A stretch of DNA of 64,000 nt, taken from positions 1 through 64,000 of the IMG/VR virus record IMGVR_UViG_3300027689_000001; one strand, 5' to 3'. The notes beneath the pieces were generated by a model that searched no databases, had not been told where the DNA came from, and saw nothing but the letters and a program-made list of their open reading frames with translations. This DNA is from a virus (lineage: Duplodnaviria > Caudoviricetes). This document shows, in pieces, positions 29,684 to 47,828 of this stretch. Positions within the stretch are counted from its first letter, which is position 1, and every line of letters starts with the position of its first letter. Made by a program: the position numbers and the translations under genes.

Positions 29684-30304
29684 CTATCCTGCGTAAAAAA
29701 TATGTCTACCGATTTTAGTAACTCTCTGTAATCTCCACCCTGGACTAACATAATCCGCATGGTAAAACAACACGTTACTATTAACTACTATACGCGTATT
29801 GATCTCAGAAGTCAATACTTTTTTAGCAATATCTTTTGCTTCGGCGTATAATACTGGGTCTTTGGCAGGTCGACGCATACACGTCCAACTGAACTGACAG
29901 ACCCTACTTGTTCTCTGATAAACGACAGAGCAAACGTTTGATGGATATTTTGGATTGCGAACTCTATTTAAAGTTACACCTGCAACCGCGATTTTACCCT
30001 TTCTGGGTTCATTACCTGCTTCGTAGTAGATGTTATCTGCTAGACAAGTTATTGCTGCAGAATTTTGTGACAGGTATTTTTGTTTTTCTTTTTTAACGTT
30101 TTTTTGTATGATTTCTTCTTGTTTTTGTAAAATTTCTTGGTTTTGTCGTTTTACGCTTTCGACTTTCTCATATCCACCGACAGTGTATTCCATTGCGGTG
30201 TCTTCGATTCTTTCTTTTGCATAACTCAATGATACACAATATATTACAATTACCACTAAAATTGAAGAAAGAATTTTCAATGTCTTCTTATTAAAGGAAG
30301 GCAT
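29684..30304 (-). CDS. SleB-like cell wall hydrolase (Hydrolase_2) with N-terminal membrane anchor
   Basis: CLADNIYYEAGNE, VAGVTLNRV, CQFSW, FYHADYVSPGW, IGRHIFY. Start at ATG 30304 (AAGGA upstream) is preferred over 30376. Confidence 0.88.
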   Translation of the reverse strand: MPSFNKKTLKILSSILVVIVIYCVSLSYAKERIEDTAMEYTVGGYEKVESVKRQNQEILQKQEEIIQKNVKKEKQKYLSQNSAAITCLADNIYYEAGNEPRKGKIAVAGVTLNRVRNPKYPSNVCSVVYQRTSRVCQFSWTCMRRPAKDPVLYAEAKDIAKKVLTSEINTRIVVNSNVLFYHADYVSPGWRLQRVTKIGRHIFYAG

Positions 30305-30429
30305 CTCTATTCCTTGGATTGTTAAACTGGAGAGAGGATTAACCAGTGACTCCCTACACTGGGCACTTTTTTTCAAAGGTGCATTATATTTAGGGTTTCG
30401 AAACTCTTTATAGTCTCGTTTTAACCCTA

Positions 30430-30672
30430 AACTAGAACGGTTGACGGTTTATTCTGTTTCGAGGAAAACCGCCGAAAACCCAATGCTAGCTTAAGCAGCT
30501 AGAGCAAAGGCAACGTTATCGTTTGCATTTACAGTTTGTGGCGCTTTGCCAGTCAATCAGTCTCGGTATTCCTATTACACGAAAATCGATATCCAGGTCA
30601 CCCCCATATGGTGGAGGTGGAGGGAGTCGAACCCTCGTCTTTCCGCTTTTATTGTCAACTGTCATCAACTAA
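30430..30672 (-). ncRNA. ssrA: Circularly permuted (two-piece) tmRNA
   Basis: Minus strand: T-arm GAGGG-TTCGACT-CCCTC, then CACCTCC-A-CCA (ends 30609), spacer TAT, then the 5' acceptor strand GGGGGTG (starts 30605), giving a G3:U70 pair. Tag frame 30526-30491 reads ANDNVAFALAA-stop. Outer ends approximate. Confidence 0.93.
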
Positions 30673-30677
30673 TATTC

Positions 30678-30708
30678 TATTTATACTATACTTAACGTAG
30701 GAAGTCAA
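30678..30708 (-). promoter_or_regulatory. Composite promoter for the tmRNA: TTGACT-N17-TATAAA overlapping a late TATAAATA
   Basis: Minus strand TTGACTTCCTACGTTAAGTATAGTATAAATA. Confidence 0.75.
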
Positions 30709-30925: not shown

Positions 30926-31750
30926 CTACCCATATAAATTTGAATAATCAAATGCAATTCTGTGAAGGACACGATTGTCCATTCCGTCGAAATCCCAACG
31001 TTTGTGAATGCTCAACCATTGTTCCGATATAACAATATCTCCATCTTCCCAATCATGATGATAAACAAACTCATCCTTTAGCACATGTTCAGTTAGTTCC
31101 TGCATAATGCTTTCAAATTGTTCCTGTTCGTATCCATCAAATCCAAAAATTTGTAAGAACGGAAAGAAAATTCCAGTCTTACCTTCTTTATTGGTGTGAA
31201 CAAGATCGATTAAATTGTCTCTGTTTACATGGTCATTGAAGATTGTAGTTTGTGAGTACTTTCCATGTTCATGCCCACAATATACCTTTATGTCAGCAAT
31301 CTTAGATTTCATCTCATCACTTAATGCTTTGTAACTCGCAATGTTGTTAATCCAACTGGTGCGAGAACCTTTTGTTCCCTTTACTCCATGTAACCAAATA
31401 AGAGGATCTCGCTCTTTGTTGCTAGGTTGATTTGCATGCCAATCTAGAGCAACTTTGTGACCATGTAATCCTTGTTCACCATCCTTGTTGCGTTGACCCG
31501 TTACTCGAAGAATATGGTCAGTTAAACGAATGTGTTTAATTCTTTCTGCTTCTACGGGATAGTATTGACACTTTCCTATAATTTTACAGAATCGTACTTC
31601 ATCTTCAGTCGAGAGTGATTGGTTCTTGAACACAACCACCATGTTACTAACAATGAGTTTACCGACTTGTCTAACTTGCTCGTCGGTTAACATTCTGATG
31701 TCCTCGTCAACGAACACGGTCCATCCATTATCTAATATTTTAATTTGCAT
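30926..31750 (-). CDS. TauD/TfdA-family Fe(II)/2-oxoglutarate dioxygenase
   Basis: VVVFKNQSL, LDWHAN (HxD variant HxN), HHDWEDGDIVI, HKR, RVLHRI. Confidence 0.8.
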   Translation of the reverse strand: MQIKILDNGWTVFVDEDIRMLTDEQVRQVGKLIVSNMVVVFKNQSLSTEDEVRFCKIIGKCQYYPVEAERIKHIRLTDHILRVTGQRNKDGEQGLHGHKVALDWHANQPSNKERDPLIWLHGVKGTKGSRTSWINNIASYKALSDEMKSKIADIKVYCGHEHGKYSQTTIFNDHVNRDNLIDLVHTNKEGKTGIFFPFLQIFGFDGYEQEQFESIMQELTEHVLKDEFVYHHDWEDGDIVISEQWLSIHKRWDFDGMDNRVLHRIAFDYSNLYG

Positions 31751-33671: not shown

Positions 33672-34211
33672 TTAAACTGTATCGCTCCACCACTCTGGAA
33701 TCGGACGATTTTTCCATTTTGCAAAACTTTTTTTCGCGCCGATATAATAGTTCTTATATGCCTGAATTGAGTCGAGTGTCTTGTATTCTTCTGGCATACA
33801 CTGAGGCATAGGAGTTATATCACCATCTTTGATATTGGTAGGCAGATTACCCAAATAGGGAATCAATCGTTCAGAAACATGATGCCTACCGTAACGAAAT
33901 GTGTATTCGTCCATAAGATTCCGCCAAAGGGTATACAACCACATGTAGTTACCTGTGGTCTCTCTGCACCAAATGCCTGAAGGATGTTTCATGTGAGATG
34001 CAAGGTATAGATTACTATCACGATCGTCTTCCAATTTCCAACGCATTGCTTTGCGTCCAGAAATAGATTTACCCACATATTCATCACCATCAAGAAGTCG
34101 ATGAGCAGTTGATAGAAGTTGCGCATATTCTAGAATCATTTTGACAACATGTTTGTCAACATGCATCACTGCACACGTCTTGGGGTCTGGATGTAGATAA
34201 AAAATATTCAT
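33672..34211 (-). CDS. Pyrimidine-dimer DNA glycosylase (DenV)-like protein
   Basis: MNIFYL..DKHVVKMILEYAQLLSTAH, HPSGIW, EYTFRYGRHH, QCMP, AYKNYY. Confidence 0.65.
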   Translation of the reverse strand: MNIFYLHPDPKTCAVMHVDKHVVKMILEYAQLLSTAHRLLDGDEYVGKSISGRKAMRWKLEDDRDSNLYLASHMKHPSGIWCRETTGNYMWLYTLWRNLMDEYTFRYGRHHVSERLIPYLGNLPTNIKDGDITPMPQCMPEEYKTLDSIQAYKNYYIGAKKSFAKWKNRPIPEWWSDTV

Positions 34212-34217
34212 AATGTA

Positions 34218-34496
34218 TTACTCGTCAAATGGAATCTCTTCCATGTTATTAATTATGTTTTGTATCGCATCTTTAGCGACATTACTTATTATACTGTTTC
34301 CTATCGAAAAGTCAAGTGCTTTTCTAACAAAAATTGGATCTAATGCATTCAACATATCTGGTTTATATCTCTTATCACATTCTGGATAAGTATTCAATGC
34401 AGCAAGGACAAGTTCTACTTCGAAGTCCGTATATAAAGATATACGATACCTTCTGTGCGATAGAAATCTATCTGGAAAATTAACTACTCTACCCAT
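34218..34496 (-). CDS. Hypothetical protein
   Basis: 92-aa co-oriented ORF behind a TAATAAATA late-like motif. Confidence 0.6.
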   Translation of the reverse strand: MGRVVNFPDRFLSHRRYRISLYTDFEVELVLAALNTYPECDKRYKPDMLNALDPIFVRKALDFSIGNSIISNVAKDAIQNIINNMEEIPFDE

Positions 34497-34510: not shown

Positions 34511-35938
34511 TTAAAAGACCTTCACATTATAGATATTTTGGAACATTGCAGCATCTTTCTTATCATTTACCATTGGAAATCCCTTTACGTTTAAACTGGT
34601 GTTGAGTAACATGGGACAACCTGTTTCTTTATACCATCTTGTCAACAATTCAAACAATCCTGGATGCTGCTGCTCGTTTACAGTTTGGACGCGAGATGTG
34701 CCATCAACGTGAATGATAGCAGGGAACTTTGCAGGAAATTTACATCTTGCAGTAAATTGCATGTAAGGGGATACTTCAACTGGCATCTCAAAATATTCTG
34801 CTGCATGTTGCTCAAGGATGACTGGGGCGAATGGTCTAAACTTTTGTCTGCGCTTAATTGCATTTACTCTGTCCTTAATGTCTGGTCTAGTAGGATCGGC
34901 GAGGAGACTTCGGTTACCAAATGCTCTCGGACCAAACTCCGCCTTTCCACTAGCAACTCCAACTATACCCTCTTTAAGCAAAGAAGTCAATAGTTTTTCT
35001 ACAGGATATTCAGTATCAATATTCTCGCCAAGGTATGGACCTTGCCAGTTTAGTTTTCTGCGATTGTTTGCAGCAATAGCACCAAGAGAACTACCAGCGT
35101 CTCCTGGATTCGGAATGATCCAAATATTCTTGAAGTATTTCAATGCGATATGATTCGCAGAGCAGTTAAGTGCGCAACCCCCTGATAACACTAGGTTATT
35201 TTGTAGAGGGTCTATTTCCTTGGCACGACGAAGCAGTTTATCGAATTCTTCTTCATAAATCTTCTGCGCAGAAGCAGCAAGGTCATAATAATCAGGATCT
35301 TCGTTTTTCAACCACCATTTACAACCACGATGTAAATTAGTTTTTTCGTAGAGTTCGCGCATGTCCCAATAGTGTTTATTGGGATTACCATATGCTGCCA
35401 TACCCATCAGGATATATTCATCTTCGTTTGGTTTCAATCCAACTCTGTCTGTTATAGCGGAATAGAATAGGCCAAGAGATTTCGGATAATCCATATTCCA
35501 CTTTTTCTTAAGAGTCTCATCGGCGCATAACCAAATAGATGCTGTATCAAATTCACCGATGGCATCAATTACTAGAGCAGTTGCAGATTCAAACTGAGAA
35601 GTATAATACCCAGCAGCAGCATGTGATTCGTGATGCGACGCAAATTCAACAGGAACTTGGAGTCCAAATTCATCCTCTAGATATCGCCGAACACTGAAAC
35701 GAACCAGTCCTTGCCCTGAAAGTAATCTACGCATTGCTCGTAGTTTTGGTTTCTCATACCAGTGGATTTTTTCTGGTTTACCAAACTTCAGCGCTGCTTC
35801 GATAAGATCTAGATTCAGATACTTGTCATTTTTGATTCCGCTATACCGTTCTGCGCTTGACGCGAATAGGATTTCTCTGCCACTGACAACAGTCAAAGCA
35901 GCATCATGTGCACCAGCAGAGATTCCCCACTCAATCAC
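34511..35938 (-). CDS. Carbamoyltransferase, NodU/CmcH/TobZ family
   Basis: HDAA, HHESHAA, DAIGE, MGMAAYG, SGGCALN, GDAGSSLG, EFGPRAFGNRS, FRPFAP, HVDGTSRVQTV, LLNTSLN. Confidence 0.95.
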   Translation of the reverse strand: MIEWGISAGAHDAALTVVSGREILFASSAERYSGIKNDKYLNLDLIEAALKFGKPEKIHWYEKPKLRAMRRLLSGQGLVRFSVRRYLEDEFGLQVPVEFASHHESHAAAGYYTSQFESATALVIDAIGEFDTASIWLCADETLKKKWNMDYPKSLGLFYSAITDRVGLKPNEDEYILMGMAAYGNPNKHYWDMRELYEKTNLHRGCKWWLKNEDPDYYDLAASAQKIYEEEFDKLLRRAKEIDPLQNNLVLSGGCALNCSANHIALKYFKNIWIIPNPGDAGSSLGAIAANNRRKLNWQGPYLGENIDTEYPVEKLLTSLLKEGIVGVASGKAEFGPRAFGNRSLLADPTRPDIKDRVNAIKRRQKFRPFAPVILEQHAAEYFEMPVEVSPYMQFTARCKFPAKFPAIIHVDGTSRVQTVNEQQHPGLFELLTRWYKETGCPMLLNTSLNVKGFPMVNDKKDAAMFQNIYNVKVF

Positions 35939-36782
35939 TATACATCTGTTCTAGTTTTTCAATTACAAGGTTTGCATATTTTTGATGGGATTCAATTCGG
36001 GGGTGTCCGAATACATGATGATTCTTAACATTAGTAATAGGATTTCCGGAAATTACTGTAAGACCAGTGGTATTAATCTCATTATTTGACGGCAGCATAG
36101 AAGCACACAAATCAACGAACTCAGAAAAATTCTTAGTTTTCAGTTCTTCTGAGAACGTATACGGTAAAAAGGTATCTTTACCAAAAACATAGCATAGTTT
36201 AATTCGTCCATCTAATCTGTCAGATAGAGTAGACAAAATCATAAGTTCTTTATAGTAATTATATAGTATATTGTAGGCATTAACCCAATGATGTTCTATT
36301 TGTGTTTTGAACTCACTGGAGAAGTTGGATTCCCATGTAGACTCTGTAAACTTAGAACCAAAAATCCCTCCACCAACATCGCCAGTTTCTAAAAATTGAA
36401 ACCATCTAAATGGAGAAGTAACTCCTGCTAAAATAAAATCATCGTTCTGTATTTTAGAATTGTGTAAATCGGATAAAATTCTATATGTTGCATCTGCTAA
36501 ACTGGATCCTGCTCTTGCTCTATTATGCAGAGGTTTATCAAATCTTTTTGCGACATAATTCGGCCAACTTTTAGTTGCATTAAGACGTAGTATATCGCTA
36601 ATTGTATTTGATGATACGTTTAAACTTTCATACAAATCGCGAGGACCTGTTATGTTAGCGTTTTTTACATGAGCAAACAGATCCCTTTCTGACATATTAA
36701 AAAATTCGTGATCCGTCAATTCGGATCCTGCAGTCATACTACATCCATAACTAATGATTCTGTTATACGGAAACTTAATCAT
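35931..36782 (-). CDS. SGNH-like hypothetical protein
   Basis: GCSMTAG block I, SWP..NRARAGSS, C-terminal GHP..SH. Confidence 0.55.
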   Translation of the reverse strand: MIKFPYNRIISYGCSMTAGSELTDHEFFNMSERDLFAHVKNANITGPRDLYESLNVSSNTISDILRLNATKSWPNYVAKRFDKPLHNRARAGSSLADATYRILSDLHNSKIQNDDFILAGVTSPFRWFQFLETGDVGGGIFGSKFTESTWESNFSSEFKTQIEHHWVNAYNILYNYYKELMILSTLSDRLDGRIKLCYVFGKDTFLPYTFSEELKTKNFSEFVDLCASMLPSNNEINTTGLTVISGNPITNVKNHHVFGHPRIESHQKYANLVIEKLEQMYSD

Positions 36783-36879
36783 ATATGAAAGGGTCCATTT
36801 TTCTTATTTTTTGTAATCTCTTTTTTACTCTTCTAGATTGTAAATAAGAACGAATTATCGTTAATATTTTTTTAAACAT
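36775..36879 (-). CDS. 34-aa basic peptide (not in track)
   Basis: MFKKILTIIRSYLQSRRVKKRLQKIRKMDPFIYD; overlaps the upstream stop and downstream start (translational coupling); AAAGGA upstream. Confidence 0.7.
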   Translation of the reverse strand: MFKKILTIIRSYLQSRRVKKRLQKIRKMDPFIYD

Positions 36880-38404
36880 AATAGTTATATCCTTTTAACT
36901 CATCACTAATATAACCTGATTCCATCGTCGCTGGGTCGCCCGCACGACTGCTGATTTTGCTATCTACATACTTATTTGTTAGTATTTCATCTTTTGTTGG
37001 AACCGCAACATCAATGTTATCTATAAAGTGTGCAAACTCTGGAAATGTTGTTTTGAAATCTTTGCCACGACGCACGTCGTATTGTATATAGAAGTTCTTA
37101 AAGTCGTTCCAAAGTTTTCCTTCTTCTGCTGTATCACTGTGCGGCGTTTTAATAATGTCTAGATAATCTATCAATCGTTCAACTTGTGCATATTCCCACT
37201 CACCAAGTAACGGTTGAGAGTTGCAGTCGTTGTCTGTTAAGTGTTTAGATTTTCTATTATCATACCATGTCTGTAGTTTGTCCCGATAAAATTCTTTGAT
37301 ATTGATCGGAAGGATAGCAGGACTTTGGAAACTTGGGAATCGTAGTATGTTCAATGAAATTTGGCAGTAACGATTACCATACTTGCGCTTAAACTCAAGC
37401 ATCTCATCCATAAATTCTGTTATGCTTGATAAACATAGACCGTTTATTGTCATCATCACAACAATCGACTTAAAATTTCCCTCGACGATAATCCGTTCTA
37501 AGTTTATTATCCATTGTTTGTAATCCATGCCATCGCGGATGTATTCGCTATGCGCACCAACTGATTCATTACTAGTGTATAAATCAAGATGTGGTACATG
37601 ATGACTTACCTCAATAAACTTATCAAGTAGATCCTGTTTGGGAACTAGATTGGAGTTTACAGCGTAACGCAGTTTCTTACCCTTTTCAGGATTGTTTTTG
37701 AACCAGTCAAACAATTTCCACACTGATGCTGCCATCAAAGGTTCACCGCCAGTGATGCGGATCTCTTCTAAGTTGTCCTGTAGTCCACTTTCCCACCATT
37801 TCCAAAATGCTTGGATGTAAGGATTGTTTCCTTCTTTGTCTGCTGCACTCGCCGCCCATGGTGCATCGTCTACGTAGTGTCCGCGAGAATCGCTGATGAT
37901 GTTACGGTATGGACCATGCTTCTTAATATCTTTGACCCAACTTGTGCTGAATGATGGGTTGCAATATGAACAAGCAAAATTACAGGTGCGGTCAAAACTA
38001 ACCTCTAGTATCTTGAGCATCACATCTTGCTCCCACGGCATGTCAACGGTGGTCTTTATATCTTCTTCCTTATAGATGTGAGTTTTCATCACACGGTCAG
38101 AAATCAAATCCTTACCAATATCTTCGACCTTCCAACAATACTCACATTCGTTGGGTCTTTTACCTTCTTGCATCAACTTACGCATCTTCTTCTTATGCTG
38201 CGTATTATGAATTGCAGATGGATTGGTCTTGATTTCTTCAGGATCAATCTTGTGCGCTGGAGGGTGATGGCATGATGTTGTCTGACCATGACCTAACCAA
38301 ATCGTAGCATTGTACCATTTTGCGGCGCAGTAACTTTCGCTGATGGGATCTATCACTCGAACTTTATATTGTGACAGTGACTCGTCTGGTTTATATGTCT
38401 TCAT
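36872..38404 (-). CDS. Radical SAM protein with N-terminal twitch/SPASM-like Cys cluster (6th of 6 in transcription order)
   Basis: CAAKW..SCHH..CEYCW; CNFACSYC; ITGGEPL. Start taken at MKTYKP (38404). Confidence 0.9.
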   Translation of the reverse strand: MKTYKPDESLSQYKVRVIDPISESYCAAKWYNATIWLGHGQTTSCHHPPAHKIDPEEIKTNPSAIHNTQHKKKMRKLMQEGKRPNECEYCWKVEDIGKDLISDRVMKTHIYKEEDIKTTVDMPWEQDVMLKILEVSFDRTCNFACSYCNPSFSTSWVKDIKKHGPYRNIISDSRGHYVDDAPWAASAADKEGNNPYIQAFWKWWESGLQDNLEEIRITGGEPLMAASVWKLFDWFKNNPEKGKKLRYAVNSNLVPKQDLLDKFIEVSHHVPHLDLYTSNESVGAHSEYIRDGMDYKQWIINLERIIVEGNFKSIVVMMTINGLCLSSITEFMDEMLEFKRKYGNRYCQISLNILRFPSFQSPAILPINIKEFYRDKLQTWYDNRKSKHLTDNDCNSQPLLGEWEYAQVERLIDYLDIIKTPHSDTAEEGKLWNDFKNFYIQYDVRRGKDFKTTFPEFAHFIDNIDVAVPTKDEILTNKYVDSKISSRAGDPATMESGYISDELKGYNYYV

Positions 38405-39584
38405 AGTTGATTGCTTTACAAAACTCAGGGAAAACATCAGAGAACAGTGTATTTCTGTAAGTGTCCAGTCTTTTATTATATGAAATAAATTGCCGAAACT
38501 TAGTTTCGTTACCATCTTTACGTAATGTCTGTGTTATGTTGTTACGAACATAATCAGGCATGGTTTGAATTTTCTCTATTACTTTTTCTTTAACTTCAGT
38601 AGGTAGATTCCAAGGACTTAGAAAATCTGGATCATAACACCAGTTATGATGTACCTTATATTCTTTGAAATAATCGAAAAATTCTTTGACATAAAATATA
38701 TTGTAACTGCTAATAGTTTGGCAAATACTTAAATCTATCCAATCTGCACCATTTAATTTAGAAAGATTAACAAGAAGTTCTTCCCAATTACTACCAGACC
38801 GTATGTAAGTATTTCTCTCATGAATATCATCAATACTAGCAGTGATAGAAGATTTCTTAAAATTCTTTAGTATTTCGAACAGTCTTTGTGGAATAGAAGT
38901 TAAATTGATATTATACCAAAGTTCGATATTCTGAGAAAGTCCACTTTCAACAAGCATGTCAAGATAATCTAAATGATGCATCATCAATGTTGGTTCGCCA
39001 CCATTGACATAGATTCGTTTTAGTTTAGAAGACTTATCATATAAATCTGCCCAGAAATCTTTATTGAGATACCAATCAACCTCAAACACTTTATAGTTGG
39101 TAACAAAATCTAATTCAGTTTGAAGTTTGTTATAATCTTTAATCCACTTAGAACTTGATATTGGATTGCAGGTTCTGCATTTTAAATTGCAAATATTACC
39201 AAGTCTCAATTCAATGAATTCTAGATCGATTTCAGTGATCCTACCATCAACTTCCATCTTCTCAACAATAGCAGGAACAGAAGAAAGATATCTTCCATTT
39301 TCTTCAAGTCGTTTGCTCTTAATGCCCACTCGTTCTTCATCATAACATCTAGTGCATGCTGCAGGTTCTATTCCTTGCAGCATTTCTAGTCTTGCAGTTT
39401 TAAATGTTTCTGAGTTTAAGACATCGTCAACCTTAGAGTTATTTAAAGTTAAGATTTTACCGTCATTTTTAGCATGACTAGCACAGTTCTTGTGATCGCT
39501 AATACAACATAGACTTACATTTCCATTCGGATGTGTTGCTAGATGTAGAAATGGTAATGCACAAACTTTAGATAAATTTATCAA
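38391..39584 (-). CDS. Radical SAM/twitch protein (5th)
   Basis: CALPF..LCC..CTRCY; CNLKCRTC; NGGEPT. TTG start at 39584 after GGAG is inferred (track start 39641). Confidence 0.9.
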   Translation of the reverse strand: MINLSKVCALPFLHLATHPNGNVSLCCISDHKNCASHAKNDGKILTLNNSKVDDVLNSETFKTARLEMLQGIEPAACTRCYDEERVGIKSKRLEENGRYLSSVPAIVEKMEVDGRITEIDLEFIELRLGNICNLKCRTCNPISSSKWIKDYNKLQTELDFVTNYKVFEVDWYLNKDFWADLYDKSSKLKRIYVNGGEPTLMMHHLDYLDMLVESGLSQNIELWYNINLTSIPQRLFEILKNFKKSSITASIDDIHERNTYIRSGSNWEELLVNLSKLNGADWIDLSICQTISSYNIFYVKEFFDYFKEYKVHHNWCYDPDFLSPWNLPTEVKEKVIEKIQTMPDYVRNNITQTLRKDGNETKFRQFISYNKRLDTYRNTLFSDVFPEFCKAINYEDI

Positions 39585-40809
39585 AACTTTTCTCCATCCA
39601 TGGATAAACACTTCTCCAACTTTGTCCCCTGCGTTGGTCAAGTCGATTTAAGTAGTTTTTCAGACGTTGTAATTTTACAGGGTCAGGTTCAGTCGAAACG
39701 ATCATATTACCAAAACCAGCAATATATGCTGTTGCATCTTTCCAGGGGCTGTTGGCAAGCGAATCATTCAATTTGTCTACAAACGGTTTCAATTCAGAAC
39801 CGAAAATTGCTGGATCCATAAACGTAGGAGAAGCAACAATATTAGCACCATAATTAATATGTTTTATCTTAGACCATTCGATTAATTTATCGACCAAAAC
39901 ATAAGCAGTCGGTAATGTTACTGACGATAATGTCGCCTGAATCGAGATCTTAACATTTTTTGATTGCAATAGAATGTTAAAATTATCTTGCCAGTTTTCT
40001 AGGGACATACCATGTCTAGCAAATTCTGCTTCTTTATCCCAGCAATCTATACTACAAACAATTTCAACCGATTTCAATTTACCATCTTCGACAAGTTTAT
40101 CGAGTTTTTGTATCGTTGCAATAAATTTAGGAGTAGGATGTTTGAGGTTTGAAAAGATTTTCCAATTTAATCTTGGGTGAGATCTTTGTTCAAAGAAACT
40201 TAAACATTCATAAAATTCTGGTTGGTATAATGGTTCACCGCCGAGCACTTGAAAGTCAAACAGTTCTTTGGAGTTGAAGTCCATCCAACTCCAAAATTTC
40301 TCTTTTATTTCAGCATAATTATCGACTGGTTTAAACGAACCGTCTAAATCATATTCGGATTCTAATGGACCATATTTCTTAATTTCTTGTTCGATTACGG
40401 AACTAAAAAGAGCATTGCAGTATACACATGCTTGATTACAAAGATTAGTAAAATAAACTTCTAAAATTCTTGGAGTAACTTTAGTTGCAAATGGATTATC
40501 TTTTAGTTCTGGGGGGCAACAATCGGCATCATTAATATATGCAGTGCGCTCACTCTCTCCACCAGCATCTTCAATTCTCTTGCAATATTCGCAACCGTTT
40601 CCAGGCCATTGTCCGTCAAGCATCTTCTCTCGATCTTTGACCTTTCCTGGATGGTTGTGGAAATCTTTAAAATCGATTTCATTCAAATCCCAACTATTGC
40701 ATCTGTGACAACTAGAGGTTGTGCCCTTTGAGAGAAAAATAGTACTCCACGTCCATTTGAATTGACATGCAGTTTTAGTTTCTATTGGAAACTTATGATA
40801 ATCAGTCAT
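39568..40809 (-). CDS. Radical SAM/twitch protein (4th)
   Basis: CQFKW..SCHRC..CEYC; CNQACVYC; LGGEPL. Confidence 0.9.
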   Translation of the reverse strand: MTDYHKFPIETKTACQFKWTWSTIFLSKGTTSSCHRCNSWDLNEIDFKDFHNHPGKVKDREKMLDGQWPGNGCEYCKRIEDAGGESERTAYINDADCCPPELKDNPFATKVTPRILEVYFTNLCNQACVYCNALFSSVIEQEIKKYGPLESEYDLDGSFKPVDNYAEIKEKFWSWMDFNSKELFDFQVLGGEPLYQPEFYECLSFFEQRSHPRLNWKIFSNLKHPTPKFIATIQKLDKLVEDGKLKSVEIVCSIDCWDKEAEFARHGMSLENWQDNFNILLQSKNVKISIQATLSSVTLPTAYVLVDKLIEWSKIKHINYGANIVASPTFMDPAIFGSELKPFVDKLNDSLANSPWKDATAYIAGFGNMIVSTEPDPVKLQRLKNYLNRLDQRRGQSWRSVYPWMEKSFDKFI

Positions 40810-42199
40810 GTCTTGTCCACCAATCGTATAATTCTGGATCTTCAGAATATATAGTTCTCAAATTAAGATTAGAATCATTTCTAATATGATCTAATAATTT
40901 TTGGTAATTCAATCCATTTTTAAATGATTGTTCTGCCTCATCGGGCCATTGTTCTTGAAAAGTTGGTCTATTCTTCATTTCCTGTAATGTTTTAATCAGA
41001 GTAAGTTGTTTATTCGTTCCACGGGGAATCATATACTCCAACAGAGAATCAATATGACGATCCAGAATATGTCGAGGCCAAGCAAACGGACTGAATACAA
41101 TATCTGCATGAAATGCAAACATAATTTTAGTTTCAATTCTAACGTCTAGTTCTTTACTGAGGTCGAAAAGGTTTTTGAGACTAAACATTCCTGGACCAGT
41201 AATGGTTAGATCAAGAACCATACGATCTTTGCCGTGTGGTAACTCGAGTCCTTTCTTAAAGTTCTCTAACCACTCTTTCCAAACTATTCCTTTGCGAATA
41301 AACTCTACGATCTCATCAGTTCCATCTATGCTTGCACAGATCAACCAGTTCTTAAACTGCGGGAGATAGTCATAAAGATTCTTACCGAAATAATCAACTC
41401 TACTTAGATTTGTATTATAACGTAAGTGGCAATTCTTTGCGCTGCCATTATCTACCATTTCTTGTAACGCCCACCAGTGGATATCATACATCAATGGTTC
41501 GCCGCCAACCCAGTAGCACTCTTCCACAATACCTCGAGTTACAGCATCGCGAAATTCTTCCTCTACCACTTCGGTCTGAAATTTTTGCATCTTTGCTTTG
41601 ACTTCTGGAATCATGAATGGTTGATTCTGTTTCGACCACATATTATGCTTACGCTTTTCTGCTTCCCAAGAAGAACTTAACTGTTCTCCGCACATGCGAC
41701 ATTTGAAATTACACAGATTACTAAACCGATAATCAAACGAAATAGGTTCCATTGTGGTATGACCTGTTTCGTCGGTTGAGTCAAAACATTCTTGAATCTT
41801 ATCATTAAATAGTGCGCCAGTGAACCAACTGCGATAGTTACTTACGCTGAGAATATCGTCGTTGCAAACATCGCACTGCGAGATACGTTCTCCCGCCATT
41901 AACTTGCGACGAATGTCTTTCATATATTCGCTGTTCCAGTGTTCCTTCAACGAGACTGGATTAAAATCATCTACCTCTGTTTTGCTTTCAGTAACTTCAC
42001 CATACTTGGAGTCATTACTCGCGTCGATGTATTGTTTCTGGAAACTATGCTGTTCTCTACTTGCACAGCACAGTCGTCTTTCCGCCTGTGGACTAATATA
42101 GGTGTGAGTCCACGGAGCAGTGCAAAAGACTTTATTTGGACTGTCTTCTTTTACTTTACCATGTTCCCACACAGGAAGAATTTTATCGCTCATTGACAC
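40802..42199 (-). CDS. Radical SAM/twitch protein (3rd)
   Basis: CTAPW..LCC..CDVC; CNFKCRMC; VGGEPL. Confidence 0.9.
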   Translation of the reverse strand: MSMSDKILPVWEHGKVKEDSPNKVFCTAPWTHTYISPQAERRLCCASREQHSFQKQYIDASNDSKYGEVTESKTEVDDFNPVSLKEHWNSEYMKDIRRKLMAGERISQCDVCNDDILSVSNYRSWFTGALFNDKIQECFDSTDETGHTTMEPISFDYRFSNLCNFKCRMCGEQLSSSWEAEKRKHNMWSKQNQPFMIPEVKAKMQKFQTEVVEEEFRDAVTRGIVEECYWVGGEPLMYDIHWWALQEMVDNGSAKNCHLRYNTNLSRVDYFGKNLYDYLPQFKNWLICASIDGTDEIVEFIRKGIVWKEWLENFKKGLELPHGKDRMVLDLTITGPGMFSLKNLFDLSKELDVRIETKIMFAFHADIVFSPFAWPRHILDRHIDSLLEYMIPRGTNKQLTLIKTLQEMKNRPTFQEQWPDEAEQSFKNGLNYQKLLDHIRNDSNLNLRTIYSEDPELYDWWTRHD

Positions 42200-43754
42200 C
42201 TAAACTATCTGTTTTGGTATTCCATCCATGTGCGATTTCGTCGCTGATATACCCTTCTTCGGTAGTAGCAGGATTACCAGTTCGTTCTTTCAATCCAGTA
42301 TCTTCTTTATAATTTTTACCAAGAATTTCTTCAGTTGTTGGAACTGGAACATCAACACTATCAATAAAGTCTACAAAAATTTGTGGGAATGTTTCGCGGA
42401 AGTTCTTACCACGACGCACATCATATTGTAGATAGAAATTCTTAAAGTCGTTCCACAACTTTGATTCTTCGCTGGTGTTTATATGTGGTGTTTTAATTAC
42501 GTCAAGGTAATCAATCAAACGCTGAACATGAGAACGTTCCATAAGAGAAAATAATTGTATGCCGTTTTTATCTCTTTCATCTTTACTTACGATGTCCAAC
42601 AACCATTTTTCCAATTTGTTCTTATAAAATTCCTTGATATTAATCGGGAGGATAGCAGGACTTTGGAAACTAGGAAACCGCAAAAGATTCAGGGTCATTG
42701 TTGGAAACTCTCTTCCATATGTTCGTTTTAGGTCGAGCATATCATCCATGAATTCAGTAATCGACGCCAAACAAAGACCATTAATTGTCATCATTATGTG
42801 CAATTTCTTTAGATTTCCTTCAGTAACTAATCGATGGATATTTTCTTTCCACTGATCGTATATCATACCGTCACGAATATAATCTGAGTGTTTTCCAAGA
42901 GATTCGTTACTGGTATACACTTCGAAATCAGGCACGTGATGCGACATCTCAATTAGTTTATCTAGTAACGCTTTCTTAGGAACAAGATTAGAATTCATCG
43001 CATATCTAAGTTTCTTGCCCTTCTCAGGATTGTTTTTGAACCAATCGAATAATTTCCACACTGATGCTGCCATCAAAGGTTCACCGCCAGTGATTCTAAT
43101 TTCTTGCAAATTGTCTTGAAGATCTGATTCCCACCATTTCCAAAATGCCTGAATGTAAGGATTGTTTTCTTCTTTTTCTGCAGCTGGTTTTGCCCACGGA
43201 GAATCATCGATAAAATGCCCTCGCCCATCACTTTGAATGTTACGGTACGGACCAAACTTCTTGATGTCTTTAACCCATGTAGTAGAAAATCCTGGATTGC
43301 AATATGAACAAGCAAAATTACAGGTGCGGTCAAAACTGATCTCGAGAGTTCTAAGAGTTACATCTTCTTCCCAAGGCATGACTGCAGCCTTTTGAATATC
43401 TTCTTGTGAGTAAATCCCTGTCTTGTATACTCGGTCAGAAACATTATTTCGACCAATGTCTTCCACCTTCCAACAATATTCACATTCATTTGGTCGCTTA
43501 CCTTCTTGCATCATCTTACGCATAAGTTTTTTATGCTGCGTATTATGAATTGCAGAAGGATTGTTTTCTAGTTCTTTTGGATCGATATTATGTCCAGGAG
43601 GGTGATGGCATGATGTTGTTTGTCCATGTCCTAACCAAATGGTAGCATTGTACCATTTTGCGGCACAAAATGTATCCGAAATCGGATCGATAACATTCTT
43701 CTTATACTCAAGAAAAATATCGGTCTCTTTTGTGTCCATTATAGTTCCTTGCAC
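42183..43754 (-). CDS. Radical SAM/twitch protein (2nd); close paralog of 36872..38404
   Basis: CAAKWYNATIWLGHGQTTSCHHPP; CNFACSYC; ITGGEPL. The start may be 43739. Confidence 0.9.
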   Translation of the reverse strand: MQGTIMDTKETDIFLEYKKNVIDPISDTFCAAKWYNATIWLGHGQTTSCHHPPGHNIDPKELENNPSAIHNTQHKKLMRKMMQEGKRPNECEYCWKVEDIGRNNVSDRVYKTGIYSQEDIQKAAVMPWEEDVTLRTLEISFDRTCNFACSYCNPGFSTTWVKDIKKFGPYRNIQSDGRGHFIDDSPWAKPAAEKEENNPYIQAFWKWWESDLQDNLQEIRITGGEPLMAASVWKLFDWFKNNPEKGKKLRYAMNSNLVPKKALLDKLIEMSHHVPDFEVYTSNESLGKHSDYIRDGMIYDQWKENIHRLVTEGNLKKLHIMMTINGLCLASITEFMDDMLDLKRTYGREFPTMTLNLLRFPSFQSPAILPINIKEFYKNKLEKWLLDIVSKDERDKNGIQLFSLMERSHVQRLIDYLDVIKTPHINTSEESKLWNDFKNFYLQYDVRRGKNFRETFPQIFVDFIDSVDVPVPTTEEILGKNYKEDTGLKERTGNPATTEEGYISDEIAHGWNTKTDSLGVNER

Positions 43755-45271
43755 TTTTTATAGAAATTATTTAATTCAGGAAAGGTCGTCATAAAATCAG
43801 TATTTCTTCTTTTGTCCATTTCGTCTACATACTCAGAAAAACGTTTCATGTCTAGTTGTTTCTGGCGAGGATCCATTCCTGATTTCAGTATATCTAGGTC
43901 TCGTTGAACCTTGTCGATTTCATATGGTTTGAATCCACGCAAACTTCTGTTATAATCTTCTTGCTGAACGTTATCGCGCATGAATTGTAGGCAGTCTTCG
44001 AATTGTTCAATCATCTCAGTTTCTTCGTGTAGTAATTTCATATTCAACCAAGAAGGACTGTGGAGCATAGGTATGTCGAACCAAATTCTTTGTGCGACAT
44101 TACGAATGAATGGAGGATGCTTGAAACCATCATGATCAGGTGGTTGAATTACTTTTCGTTCTTGTTTATCGAAAGCAAATTCTTCGCGAAGTTCTAGGAT
44201 CCATTCTAAGAATCCTCGCAGTCCAGGAACACTCAGAATATTAAATGTATTGATAATAGTAATACTTGTTCCTTGTGTTGAATGAAGAAACTTCGATACA
44301 TTTGATTTCAAGACAGCATAATCCATACCAGTTCGGATATATTCTGCTTGTTTACCAACACTATCGCAACTTACAAACAACGAGAAGTGTTTGATTGCTG
44401 GAGCAACATACCAATAATTACCACTATCTGGATTTAAACGGTCAGGGTTTTCCCACACTCTGACTTCTTCCAGTTTCTGAACCTTAGAAATAAACTTATC
44501 GAAAATATCAGGTTTTGGAGGACATAAGTTACTGGTAATGCTCACCTCAAGCAGAGAGTTGGGATGTTTATCAACATACTCCAGAACCTTCCACGTATTA
44601 TGATCCATCAAAGGTTCACCACCTGTCATGCGGAAAATCTTAAGATTCTTATAGAGATCTGGCCACCATTTCCAAAATGCCTCAACGTAGGGATTGTCTC
44701 GGTTCGCAACCTTCTTGGGCATCAGATTTATACGAGCGAGTGCATCAAGATCGTTATGCCTTGCATCGGTTAGTGGTATTGCACCATACTTTACGATTTC
44801 TTCTTCCCAAGCAGAACTTAGGTGTGGACTACAGTAAAGACATTTAAAATTACACGCCTGATTGAAGTTGACTTCCACGTATGCGGGAGTCCACGAGGCA
44901 TCTAATTCAGCATCTCCGAGAGTAATCTTCTCGAAGTCAGGAGAGTTCCACCATTCGCTACTACGATAATGTCGATCGCTCGTATGACCTGCATCTTCAA
45001 TACGCCAACAGTACGAACAACCTTTTGGTCGCTCGCCCTTGCGCATCATAGCACGTTCTTCAATTTTCTGGGGAGTATTGTGGAGTAATCCTGGATTTTC
45101 AGACAATCCTTCTAGAGGAATATCGTGTGTCGGCGGATGGTAGCAACTATGCGTCTTACCGTTAGTAAGATGCATACTGACCATATTCCATTTTGCAAGA
45201 CACATCGACGAACTAGCAGACTTCAGTCGCTCTTTCATCTTTTCTGTCACATCATGATATTCATTACTCAT
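43739..45271 (-). CDS. Radical SAM/twitch protein (1st)
   Basis: CLAKW..SCYHP..CSYCW; CNFKCLYC; MTGGEPL. Confidence 0.9.
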   Translation of the reverse strand: MSNEYHDVTEKMKERLKSASSSMCLAKWNMVSMHLTNGKTHSCYHPPTHDIPLEGLSENPGLLHNTPQKIEERAMMRKGERPKGCSYCWRIEDAGHTSDRHYRSSEWWNSPDFEKITLGDAELDASWTPAYVEVNFNQACNFKCLYCSPHLSSAWEEEIVKYGAIPLTDARHNDLDALARINLMPKKVANRDNPYVEAFWKWWPDLYKNLKIFRMTGGEPLMDHNTWKVLEYVDKHPNSLLEVSITSNLCPPKPDIFDKFISKVQKLEEVRVWENPDRLNPDSGNYWYVAPAIKHFSLFVSCDSVGKQAEYIRTGMDYAVLKSNVSKFLHSTQGTSITIINTFNILSVPGLRGFLEWILELREEFAFDKQERKVIQPPDHDGFKHPPFIRNVAQRIWFDIPMLHSPSWLNMKLLHEETEMIEQFEDCLQFMRDNVQQEDYNRSLRGFKPYEIDKVQRDLDILKSGMDPRQKQLDMKRFSEYVDEMDKRRNTDFMTTFPELNNFYKKCKEL

Positions 45272-45864
45272 TTAATACCAGTCACCATAAATCTGTAAAA
45301 ATGCCCACACTTCAACATACCAGCGTATTCTGGTTCTCTGACTCTGTTGATCAGCAGGAATTCCTCTAGAGTATCAGCAAGTCGAACATGCTCAGGATTA
45401 ACTAGATTATTTCCTTGGACTATGTATTTAGTCCCAGCAGGGATAGAGTTCCACCATGCATCGTAAACCTCTTGTGTTACATGTTCACTGCTGGTGTTGA
45501 TAACGAGATTCGGATATGGTTCATAAGACACCATACCATTGCTCATATCATGTTGTTGGTATTTAACATTCCTACTGAGATTGATTTGGTCAAATACAGT
45601 TTCACATTTAGAATCAAGATCTGTTGTTATGATATTAGTTTCAGGAAATCGTTCAGCAATAAATTGCGCCAGAATACCATACCAACCGCCGAAGATAACG
45701 ATAGATTTTGTCTCTTCTGGAATGCATTCGAGCAACCACTTCTTACTCTCGATCTGACTTGACCAGAAGTTTTCGGAGAATCTGTATGCATTATTCGGAT
45801 TATTGCGGATGTACTCCATCCACTTCATTACAATATCAAATTCAACCACGGCGCATTTTCGCAA
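45268..45864 (-). CDS. Class I SAM-dependent methyltransferase-like protein
   Basis: IVIFGGWYG motif I, TTDLD, VINTSSEH. Confidence 0.7.
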   Translation of the reverse strand: MRKCAVVEFDIVMKWMEYIRNNPNNAYRFSENFWSSQIESKKWLLECIPEETKSIVIFGGWYGILAQFIAERFPETNIITTDLDSKCETVFDQINLSRNVKYQQHDMSNGMVSYEPYPNLVINTSSEHVTQEVYDAWWNSIPAGTKYIVQGNNLVNPEHVRLADTLEEFLLINRVREPEYAGMLKCGHFYRFMVTGIK

Positions 45865-46243
45865 TCTCTAAAATTTGTTCATTATTGGTGACAGGAACAG
45901 CATTGCTCTTATGCAAGACACTGATGCCCTTGATTAATGTTCCAGTATATGTATTCTCTTTGCGAGCAAAGGTAACGCCAATACCATCACCAGAAGGATA
46001 CTTTTGACGATGATCGCTGACTTGATAGTCAGGAAGAGGGGTGCCACGCAACTTGGGATTGTAATTGCCTTGACGATAAGAGACATACTCATCGAACGTC
46101 TTAGTTTTAGAACCAATGCGCTTCATCTGCTTGTTGTAATCGATCCAGTCTTGGGAATACTTCGCAGTCACGCCCTTGTTAGAAGTTTTGCGCTTGCGAG
46201 TGCTGGTAGTAGTGAAGGCATGTGACATAAGTTGCATAGACAT
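45842..46243 (-). CDS. Hypothetical phage protein
   Basis: 133 aa ending YTGTLIKGISVLHKSNAVPV..IAKMRRG; first gene after the promoter at 46274-46302. Confidence 0.7.
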   Translation of the reverse strand: MSMQLMSHAFTTTSTRKRKTSNKGVTAKYSQDWIDYNKQMKRIGSKTKTFDEYVSYRQGNYNPKLRGTPLPDYQVSDHRQKYPSGDGIGVTFARKENTYTGTLIKGISVLHKSNAVPVTNNEQILEIAKMRRG

Positions 46244-46273: not shown

Positions 46274-46364
46274 AGTATACCCGTATTCGAGACAAAAGTC
46301 AATGGAAAAAAGATTTTATTTTGACAAATAAGAGCTTGACTTTTCCGCAAGAATGGGGTATAGT
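46274..46364. promoter_or_regulatory. Divergent sigma70-type promoters (- 46274-46302 TTGACT-N17-TATACT; + 46336-46364 TTGACT-N17-TATAGT)
   Basis: Both motifs read directly from the sequence. Confidence 0.8.
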
Positions 46365-46786: not shown

Positions 46787-47505
46787 CAGGAGGTTCGCCC
46801 TCCATGCGCTCGAGCATCATATCGTAGTAATTGTTTAACTCTCTTTGCCAGCAATGCTGGCAAACTTTTTAGCATTTTCGACTACTTGGTATACATCCCT
46901 AACCAGTTCGGCAGTTTGCGGTCCGACGATGAGTTTGACTCCATAAGACTTGGTTTGACCTTCCAGACGAGCAGCCAGATTAACGCCATCACCCAAGCAA
47001 TTACAGTCAAAACGCTGAGTGCTGCCCATATTACCAACAACCACAGTGGCAGTGTTAATACCAAGACCCATCCCAAAAGCGGGCACACTTTCTCCTTTAA
47101 TTTCGTCATTGAAAATCTCCAAATCTTTTAACATTAAAAATGTCGTTGTGTGTTAATAAATATACTGGAAGATAGTAAAAATTACAGAGAATCAAACCGA
47201 GAGAGGAAGATAAATGCCAGAGCAAGAACAAGAAAAGAAACAAGACCCACAATTGTTGACAAATTCGGAATCGACACAGAATCACCACTCAGGAGAATTT
47301 CTAATAGATTGGTCTGTAACTGATGGGGATGTTGGGCACCTGAGAGAGTCGCTACAAGATTCGCAATTCCAGCAGCAGATACGCCAAGAATCACTATCTT
47401 ACCAGCCAGACCAGAAAGTGGTTCGCCAATTTCGACCGACTGAAATCGGTAGTTCGGATTAATGAAAACCCGACTGTATTCATCAGTCGGTACTTTCTTT
47501 AGCAT
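46749..47505 (-). pseudogene. Fragmented CHASE2-transmembrane-class III adenylate/guanylate cyclase
   Basis: CHASE2 piece LAGKIVILGVSAAG..HPHQLQ plus a TM helix (47182..). Cyclase piece GMGLGINTATVVVGNMGSTQRFD..LGDGVNLAARLE (46835..47134) lacks the N-terminal half of the catalytic domain. The C-terminal YYDMMLERMEGEPPANFDGVYRATSM-stop is in another frame and ends at 46749. Confidence 0.8.
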
Positions 47506-47564
47506 TCTCTTCCTTTTTCTTTTCGGAAGAAAAACTAAACTCAAAACAGAATACTTTGAGGATC

Positions 47565-47828
47565 TCAATTTTTAGATTTATCGTCATTGTGATCCTCTTT
47601 TATTTGCAATACGGTACTCACCTTTTGGTTTAATCTTATCAAATCGTTATCGAGCATACGAACTCGATCGATCAACGCAATCAAAATTACATTCGTTTCG
47701 CCAATCAACGGCATTAATTTATCGGTTACGAACTTATAAATGAACCAAACAAAATAACCCATACCGACAGAAGCGACAATAGGAAATCCATACTGCTTTA
47801 CAAGTTCCGCAATGATAGAAGGATCCAT
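47565..47828 (-). CDS. Small membrane protein (YvrJ/holin-like; TM plus coiled coil)
   Basis: KQYGFPIVA TM segment, LIDRVRMLDNDLIRL. Confidence 0.65.
   Translation of the reverse strand: MDPSIIAELVKQYGFPIVASVGMGYFVWFIYKFVTDKLMPLIGETNVILIALIDRVRMLDNDLIRLNQKVSTVLQIKEDHNDDKSKN

Follow-up and report, generated by a model that had tools for sequence, protein, structure and literature searches.

The window analysed here covers positions 1 to 64,000 of an IMG/VR record of 150 kb (IMGVR_UViG_3300027689_000001, estimated to be 92% complete). On its minus strand lies a compact operon in which six consecutive genes for radical S-adenosylmethionine (SAM) enzymes are followed by genes for an SGNH-like protein and a carbamoyltransferase. 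The window also encodes baseplate and tail proteins of the T4 type, gp32 and gp59, and its gp6 homolog has Pelagibacter phage HTVC008M as closest cultured match (38% identity). Because of these T4-type proteins and of the gp6 similarity, the source is, as judged from its sequence, an uncultured marine T4-like myovirus. A first-pass annotation had read nine open reading frames (ORFs) at this locus as a tailoring operon of eleven kb. All nine are present on the minus strand, and a seeming gap between them is filled by a conserved ORF of 34 codons. The main genes are, in window coordinates:

45268..45864, minus strand: class-I methyltransferase-like protein, 198 aa (a weak call, from a sub-threshold Pfam match and a profile)
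43739..45271, minus strand: R1, N_Twi_rSAM, subfamily R1 (NF033640, 301 bits)
42183..43754, minus strand: R2, N_Twi_rSAM, subfamily R2/6 (NF033640, 306 bits)
40802..42199, minus strand: R3, N_Twi_rSAM, subfamily R3 (NF033640, 307 bits)
39568..40809, minus strand: R4, N_Twi_rSAM of a rare subfamily (NF033640, 225 bits)
38391..39641, minus strand: R5, N_Twi_rSAM of a copy-variable cassette subfamily (NF033640, 352 bits)
36872..38404, minus strand: R6, a second N_Twi_rSAM of R2/6 type (NF033640, 299 bits)
36775..36879, minus strand: basic 34-aa micro-protein ending in DPFIYD (ORF, and its recurrence beside the carbamoyltransferase)
35931..36782, minus strand: SGNH/GDSL-fold esterase or acyltransferase, 283 aa (AlphaFold model and Foldseek)
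34511..35938, minus strand: O-carbamoyltransferase of the NodU/CmcH/TobZ type, 475 aa (Carbam_trans_N and Carbam_trans_C)

This intact array is under selection and belongs to a widespread but unstudied system. We infer the chemical steps and, mainly from the company that the family keeps, what its enzymes may act on.

Six N_Twi_rSAM paralogs

R1 to R6 all match the NCBIfam family NF033640 (N_Twi_rSAM) from end to end with 225-352 bits, above its curated cut-off of 170 bits, and a scan of the genome returned the same six places with no other copy above the cut-off. The Pfam Radical_SAM core was found in each of them, in agreement with the first-pass count of six tandem radical SAM enzymes. A six-way alignment leaves invariant four N-terminal cysteines (C24, C43, C85 and C88), the triad C140, C144 and C147 and the GGEP motif (R1 numbering); the four N-terminal cysteines, CxxxCxxC and GGEP are also invariant across 68 family members. 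Each paralog carries predicted ligands for two [4Fe-4S] clusters, one set being the N-terminal twitch cysteines and the other the CxxxCxxC motif. In R3, Pfam SPASM covers residues 26-113, ahead of Radical_SAM at 158-329, and in R5 it covers residues 27-100, again ahead of the SAM core. The auxiliary cysteine cluster thus lies N-terminal to the SAM domain, as first described. The arrangement had, however, been called unusual, and it is the defining trait of NF033640: the N-terminal auxiliary domain is a trait of a named, uncharacterized family and not a peculiarity of this phage. Membership in NF033640 names an architecture and gives no function.

The paralogs are 21-34% identical to R1, and R6 is 69% identical to R2. 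The R6 reading frame is open up to 38515, and its start is most likely the ATG at 38404. R5 most likely starts near 39584; the ESM Atlas version of the protein begins at residue 20 of the ORF. An AlphaFold model of R5 (pLDDT 94) was compared with the PDB using Foldseek and VIA, and its neighbours align over the generic radical SAM core only. VIA gave Z 12.9 for anSME, 12.4 for viperin, 12.4 for SkfB, 12.2 for BlsE and 11.8 for CteB, so that these five and MoaA are effectively tied (Z 11.6-12.9). With a profile of the six paralogs, BtrN was matched weakly (E 0.0065-0.0092). A radical SAM protein assigned to 'antibiotic synthesis' in a cyanophage paper was also considered and proved unrelated.

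Partner enzymes and layout of the operon

The carbamoyltransferase is complete, as first annotated. Carbam_trans_N (130.7 bits, 1e-37) and Carbam_trans_C (177.2 bits, 3e-52) both score above cut-off, and the Kae1-like N domain and the YrdC-like C domain are both present. The protein falls into PHROG 1601 (E 2e-99) and matches the PDB entry 7xb6 at 3e-49 and TobZ at 4e-35; its metal-site motif HHESH and its ASKHA motif GGCALNC align to 7xb6. Solved relatives comprise TobZ, GdmN and the novobiocin enzyme, which O-carbamoylate sugars or polyketide hydroxyls. Against the NodU equivalog NF041651 it reaches 147.6 bits, where the cut-off is 1000, and it is therefore predicted to be a member of the superfamily but not NodU itself. 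It resembles the characterized NodU, CmcH, TobZ and GdmN in its two Pfam domains, in the HHxxH motif and in its strong matches to solved members. However, it is ∼100 residues shorter than these enzymes and, unlike them, is accompanied by a soluble 34-aa micro-protein with a DPFIY terminus.

The micro-protein gene overlaps each neighbour by 8 nt. ORFs ending in DPFIY are found in 9/24 loci with a carbamoyltransferase versus 2/103 without one (Fisher p 3e-6); in those nine, the Ralstonia jumbo phage RsoM2USA included, the ORF has 33-41 codons. One bacterial carbamoyltransferase locus has a transmembrane form of the small protein, ending in SPFVYPLF. The 34-aa protein has no Pfam match at E <= 0.05. 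Because DPFIY ORFs track carbamoyltransferase loci, the sequence evidence identifies the 34-aa ORF as a genuine gene and a predicted partner of the carbamoyltransferase. The protein was also considered as the precursor of a ribosomally synthesized and post-translationally modified peptide (RiPP), or other substrate of the radical SAM enzymes. This was rejected, since it follows the carbamoyltransferase and not the radical SAM genes. Small proteins of the SxtK/DUF5989 type occur beside bacterial carbamoyltransferases. The 34-aa protein is like them in position and in its C-terminal PF(I/V)Y motif only; the classical form has a transmembrane helix, whereas the phage protein has neither a helix nor a match to a Pfam family.

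The 283-aa protein was modelled with high confidence (AlphaFold pLDDT 94.2), and the top Foldseek matches of the model are all SGNH proteins: EstL5, a CE2 esterase, PatB and acetylxylan esterases (E 6e-5 to 1e-3; target-normalised TM-score 0.35-0.66, mostly 0.4-0.6). They include carbohydrate esterases together with the peptidoglycan O-acetyltransferase PatB. S15 (in YGCS), G92 and H260 are invariant across 47 sequences of the family, whereas the block III Asn and the block V Asp are not assignable from the alignment. Pfam, including Lipase_GDSL, gave no match in this protein or in its 63 homologs. The predicted structure confirms the SGNH hydrolase fold proposed in the first-pass annotation.

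The 198-aa gene is present as well, and its naming as a methyltransferase draws on sub-threshold evidence. Pfam Methyltransf_2 scores 15.7 bits, below its cut-off of 22.3, and a 17-member profile weakly finds the putative methyltransferase 3dtn (E 0.001) and 7wm6 (E 0.02). An IFGGWYG loop and NTSxEH are its conserved motifs, and the gene directly precedes R1 in 20/80 viral loci, a sample described below. Taken together, these matches weakly suggest a methyltransferase.

All these genes lie in one unbroken run of ORFs on the minus strand, from 46243 to 33672, with overlaps of 4-17 nt at each junction from R1 through the carbamoyltransferase. The order is the 133-aa ORF, the methyltransferase-like gene, R1-R6, the 34-aa ORF, the SGNH gene, the carbamoyltransferase, and ORFs of 92 and 179 aa. 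The earlier delimitation was right in seeing a coupled run and too short in its extent, as the stretches 45842-46243, 34218-34496 and 33672-34211 also belong to it. The remaining features of the operon are:

46274..46302, minus strand: sigma-70-like promoter TTGACT-17 nt-TATACT (consensus match, from which activity is inferred)
45842..46243, minus strand: first operon gene, 133 aa, function unknown (PHROG 27048, E 2.7e-15)
34218..34496, minus strand: 92-aa protein after the carbamoyltransferase, function unknown (recurring position)
33672..34211, minus strand: last coupled gene, 179 aa, pyrimidine-dimer-glycosylase-like (ESM Atlas clusters)

The promoter-like site, 31 nt upstream from the operon's first ATG, had already been noticed; as a class, such sites are not enriched in the region (55 observed versus 49.5 expected from shuffled sequence). 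The T4-type late motif TATAAATA, which precedes structural genes elsewhere in the window, is found neither within the operon nor anywhere between 30.7 and 48.1 kb. Because the operon has no late motif and a sigma-70-like site lies upstream, it is reasonable to suppose that it is transcribed early. It is located among the replication genes gp32, gp59 and PhoH, the last being 135 nt from the operon end, and a DNA-modification island lies on its other side. Megablast of the operon DNA against cultured phages gave no match.

Orthologs of the 133-aa protein, which has no Pfam match, precede the array in two viral loci (L057 and L064) with 69-70% identity. The 92-aa gene, also without a Pfam match, occurs in nine viral loci and in most of these directly follows the carbamoyltransferase. 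The 179-aa protein has no Pfam match of its own, but its nearest ESM Atlas clusters have PF03013 (Pyr_excise) in 29-76% of their members; a homolog in RsoM2USA, 42% identical, lies ∼750 bp after the carbamoyltransferase. This gene probably has a function separate from the pathway.

Several features of the surroundings were recorded in passing. The guanine-plus-cytosine fraction is 0.35-0.36 at 36001-40000 (R4-R6, including the block described below as swapped) and ∼0.40 in the rest of the window. ARAGORN finds a permuted transfer-messenger RNA gene at 30400-30704 on the minus strand, whose tag peptide reads ANDNVAFALAA. Two enzymes are encoded between the region of this RNA gene and the downstream neighbours of the operon, namely a dioxygenase of the TauD/TfdA type (30926-31750) and a cell-wall hydrolase of the Hydrolase_2 family (29684-30376). 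At 46835-47568, two short ORFs cluster with one 683-aa protein of another viral locus (L002, 120-2171), and the copy in the window seems fragmented. Outside the window, at ∼71,270-75,550 of the record (L127:3268-7550), lies a second radical SAM locus, different in kind, where one run encodes a radical SAM protein with B12-binding domain (532 aa), a Coq4-like protein, a glycosyltransferase of the GT2 family and a weakly QueC-like protein.

Recurrence of the arrays in viruses and bacteria

The viral sample consists of the 80 loci fetched with R2 as query. Tandem arrays of at least two N_Twi_rSAM genes were present in 80/80, many of them with four to ten, and a carbamoyltransferase follows the array in 15. 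The first-pass annotation had proposed a multi-enzyme tailoring line and left its substrate unnamed; the recurrence of tandem arrays supports this proposal, and the survey of neighbourhoods in relatives found the genes together and not scattered. Along the array, the genes usually come as R1, R2, R3, R5 and so on, with one copy of R1 and of R3 per locus, one or two of R2/6 and 1-5 of R5. In a subfamily tree of 216 representatives, the R1 clade joins 78 genes from 74 viral loci to 30 genes from 29 bacterial loci, and the R3 clade (support 1.0) comes from 56 viral and 7 bacterial loci. R4 is rare, its clade being restricted to 11 loci, all viral. Every subfamily except R4 is common to viruses and bacteria; therefore, the paralogs are old and specialised.

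The family is also abundant in metagenomes, where R2 has >8000 close homologs and the family profile returns 8,987 clusters (50% identity) at E <= 1e-30, many of which are fusions of two or three modules. Metagenome members P0187-P0211, P0253 and others have two or three full N_Twi_rSAM modules per polypeptide (790-1466 aa), and further members have unannotated extensions of 115-500 aa. The N- and C-terminal extensions of the fused members gave no PDB match, and no fusion of a radical SAM module to a glycosyltransferase was found. One viral ORF of 699 aa (L073:4625-6724) joins an N_Twi_rSAM module to a segment resembling the GDSL-like cluster 24, which is either a radical SAM-esterase fusion or a merge by gene calling.

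The nearest relative of the phage (L001) served as reference for identity and for the ratio of nonsynonymous to synonymous substitution rates (dN/dS). R1-R4 and the carbamoyltransferase are 84-95% identical to their L001 orthologs (R1, 92%) with dN/dS of 0.03-0.07: 0.05 for R1, R2 and R4, 0.03 for R3 and 0.07 for the carbamoyltransferase. The core genes are under strong purifying selection. However, a 2.5-kb block at 35938-38463, with R6, the micro-protein gene and the SGNH gene, is not collinear with L001, which has at this place two genes of R5 type and an SGNH variant with 31% identity. R6, which lacks a collinear partner in L001 and whose DNA is matched at 71% by the L001 R2 gene, seems to have been copied from a gene of R2 type. 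In the distant phage RsoM2USA, which has a gene 53% identical to R2, a module of radical SAM, SGNH, micro-protein, SGNH and carbamoyltransferase genes is kept, and a module of radical SAM, SGNH, micro-protein and carbamoyltransferase genes is also found beside arrays in Bdellovibrionota.

Ahead of the array, most viral loci have a conserved block that includes a gene for a fibre-like protein with a Peptidase_G2 intramolecular-chaperone domain and, just upstream of the array, two tandem glycogenin/GT8-like genes (E 0.004 for the profile against glycogenin; motif LLLDxDY). Some loci have an epimerase or DegT gene. The gene just upstream of R1 in most loci belongs to a family designated cluster 3; searches with clusters 3, 2, 4, 5 and 19, all array neighbours, gave no annotation. 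Near-identical pelagimyophage genomes have been reported to differ by added radical SAM cassettes in a host recognition cluster (Zaragoza-Solas et al. 2020, PMC7029224), a report that offers no family assignment, partner genes or function for them. Those phages are likewise marine and T4-like, and the nearest relative here differs by the swapped 2.5-kb block. However, the reported cassettes lie in the host recognition cluster, whereas the present array has no adjoining fibre genes and is located in an early region, between gp32/gp59/PhoH and the DNA-modification island.

Cellular loci were found with the R2/R6 alignment. Two peptide patterns bias these genome hits, so phylum frequencies were measured again with the family hidden Markov model (HMM). 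By the R2/R6 patterns, 43/45 cellular loci are in metagenome-assembled genomes of Bdellovibrionota. With the HMM, a copy above cut-off was present in 31/151 sampled Bdellovibrionota genomes, in 2/301 and 3/301 genomes of two other phyla and in 0/14 controls. The Bdellovibrionota genes are likewise arranged in arrays. Glycosyltransferases of the GT1 family are found beside them (39 genes in 17 of the 45 mostly Bdellovibrionota loci), and so are ABC-2 permease and ATPase pairs (Wzm/Wzt-like), a DegT sugar aminotransferase and an NAD-dependent epimerase/dehydratase; carbamoyltransferases are present in 7 of the 45. Independent loci in other phyla again show carbamoyltransferase, ABC-2 and epimerase partners. 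Large pilin-like proteins are also encoded in Bdellovibrionota loci, and in one Bacteroidota locus two family members adjoin an 842-aa Peptidase_S74 protein. A recurrent trio in Bdellovibrionota consists of a PqqD-like protein, a ∼250-aa rSAM-SPASM enzyme and a ∼150-aa protein in which a head of 50 residues precedes a self-cleaving Peptidase_S74 chaperone (L093:12882-14993, L100:2332-3881, L116:2028-4880 and L117:2067-2842). The head ends in ...DVFAG, followed by SD.xFKEN, and resembles a peptide that a trimerising chaperone sets free.

Candidate substrates

The reading that we favour, at about even confidence, is that the operon edits and caps a carbohydrate-containing substrate by multi-step radical chemistry. 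It is based mainly on the sugar enzymes that accompany the family in Bdellovibrionota and in other phyla, and also on the carbohydrate-acting relatives of the carbamoyltransferase and the SGNH protein and on the GT8-like genes of the viral loci. In aminoglycoside pathways, twitch radical SAM enzymes work alongside TobZ-type carbamoyltransferases. BtrN, NeoN, AprD4, DesII and BlsE share the radical SAM core with the phage paralogs, the twitch members adding one auxiliary [4Fe-4S] cluster, and act on C-H bonds of sugars or aminocyclitols; against the R5 model, BlsE is tied at the top (Z 12.2), and DesII and AprD4 reach Z 9.9 and 7.9. However, enzymes of the BtrN type have the auxiliary domain C-terminal whereas the phage paralogs have it N-terminal, and the similarity in sequence is marginal (BtrN, E 0.0065).

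In such a pathway, the 5'-deoxyadenosyl radical of each paralog would abstract hydrogen from a particular sugar C-H, and the auxiliary cluster would then take or give an electron. The outcome may be an oxidation, epimerisation, dehydration or deoxygenation, as with BtrN, NeoN, AprD4, DesII and BlsE on sugars, after which carbamoyl, methyl and acyl groups would cap the hydroxyls or amines that are left. The constant part of the pathway would be the single-copy set R1-R2-R3; the R5-type copies, together with the swapped R6/SGNH block, would make the product differ from one related phage to another. The sugar could be borne by a host envelope glycan or by a glycan on the phage fibres or virion, or could be a free sugar nucleotide.

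Several observations weigh against a carbohydrate substrate. As the first-pass annotation had remarked, the 64-kb window holds no glycosyltransferase, and the only two GT2 genes of the phage are 30 and 60 kb away. The phage lacks the GT8-like and cluster-3 genes that most array-bearing phages have, and it has no counterpart of the conserved block. The fold search with R5 does not separate sugar-, peptide- and nucleotide-acting enzymes, and our literature searches found neither a publication on the function of NF033640 nor an assayed member. The Bdellovibrionota neighbourhoods are partly non-independent, as they come from related, syntenic genomes. Moreover, PqqD-like proteins, enzymes of the rSAM-SPASM type and small proteins with Peptidase_S74 are encoded in the same bacterial loci and point to a peptide or fibre-protein target.

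This last observation belongs to the proposal that the paralogs modify a ribosomal peptide or a fibre or other virion protein by cross-linking, epimerisation or C-H oxidation, with carbamoyl, methyl and acyl groups added to side chains, which we consider unlikely. The best structural neighbours of R5 include anSME, CteB, SkfB, SuiB, ChlB and EpeE. SPASM peptide maturases (anSME, CteB, SkfB, SuiB) are its best Foldseek and VIA matches (anSME, E 5e-8, Z 12.9), and R3 and R5 have their Pfam SPASM match in the N-terminal domain. However, only a ∼200-residue core aligns (TM-score 0.38-0.44), and the phage enzymes differ from these maturases by a single auxiliary cluster, a reversed domain order and the lack of a peptide-recognition domain; no recognisable RiPP recognition element or PqqD domain was found in the six paralogs or in the other operon proteins. 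As already noted in the first pass, the window holds no precursor-like ORF, and its only small ORF in the operon tracks the carbamoyltransferase. In most viral loci, the array lies behind fibre-like genes, one with a Peptidase_G2 domain, and the pelagimyophage cassettes are in the host recognition cluster (PMC7029224); here, the array has no adjoining fibre genes and is behind an early-type and not a late promoter. Bdellovibrionota loci with PqqD-like, rSAM-SPASM and ∼150-aa Peptidase_S74 proteins, and the Bacteroidota locus where two members stand beside the S74 protein, speak for a proteinaceous target, but sugar enzymes are the more frequent partners.

That the operon converts a primary metabolite into a diffusible small molecule (aminoglycoside-, cyclitol- or nucleoside-like), for use against hosts or competitors, is, in our estimation, quite improbable. 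The aminoglycoside enzymes BtrN and TobZ provide the sole characterized combination of a twitch radical SAM enzyme with such a carbamoyltransferase, the nucleoside-antibiotic enzyme BlsE ties for top structural match, and both phages and Bdellovibrionota, in which the family occurs, attack bacteria. However, neither in the operon nor near it was a scaffold-forming enzyme found (cyclase, synthase or amidinotransferase), and a lytic phage has little time for a long pathway. ABC-2 exporters are present in the bacterial loci, but their pairing with GT1 enzymes is more typical of polysaccharide export. We see very little chance that the operon extends the neighbouring DNA hypermodification or modifies nucleotides, the product being a decorated base in phage DNA. 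A thymine-modification island with a TET/JBP gene, confirmed at 54771-55199, lies 2 kb upstream, and the operon, with its early-type promoter, has the replication genes gp32, gp59 and PhoH around it. Similarity to pyrimidine-dimer DNA glycosylases is seen in the last coupled gene, a homolog of which also lies near the RsoM2USA carbamoyltransferase. However, five further large viral records with arrays gave no TET/JBP match, and one of these is a 100%-complete relative whose operon is laid out alike; nor do relatives with 10 kb of upstream sequence show island genes. The bacterial contexts are glycan-like and not DNA-related, and the weak similarities to viperin and MoaA cover generic SAM-binding motifs only. 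A link between the array and the island was rejected on co-occurrence, and their adjacency looks incidental. Among the substrates listed in the first-pass annotation, a modified base has thus lost ground.

Under the carbohydrate reading, a more specific proposal combines several of these observations, and we hold it to be decidedly improbable as it stands: phages and predatory Bdellovibrionota would share a system in which the fibres that recognise host or prey are decorated by radical-SAM-edited, carbamoylated sugars, and swappable cassettes would alter this decoration as an arms-race device. It is suggested by the arrays behind fibre genes, the glycogenin-like transferases (a protein-glycosylating type) and the S74 and pilin-like proteins, and also by the concentration of cellular homologs in predators and the block swap between near relatives.

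N_Twi_rSAM, a family of great size, ranks among the commonest auxiliary gene sets of marine T4-like phages, yet no reaction is known for it. A series of six to ten distinct paralogs implies that one substrate undergoes successive radical C-H reactions, and these could be new enzymology on sugars. The operon described here is compact, intact and well delimited, with defined partner enzymes, and offers a practical start for biochemistry. The predator-concentrated cellular homologs and the swapping of cassettes between near-identical phages suggest a role of this system at the interface between attacker and prey.

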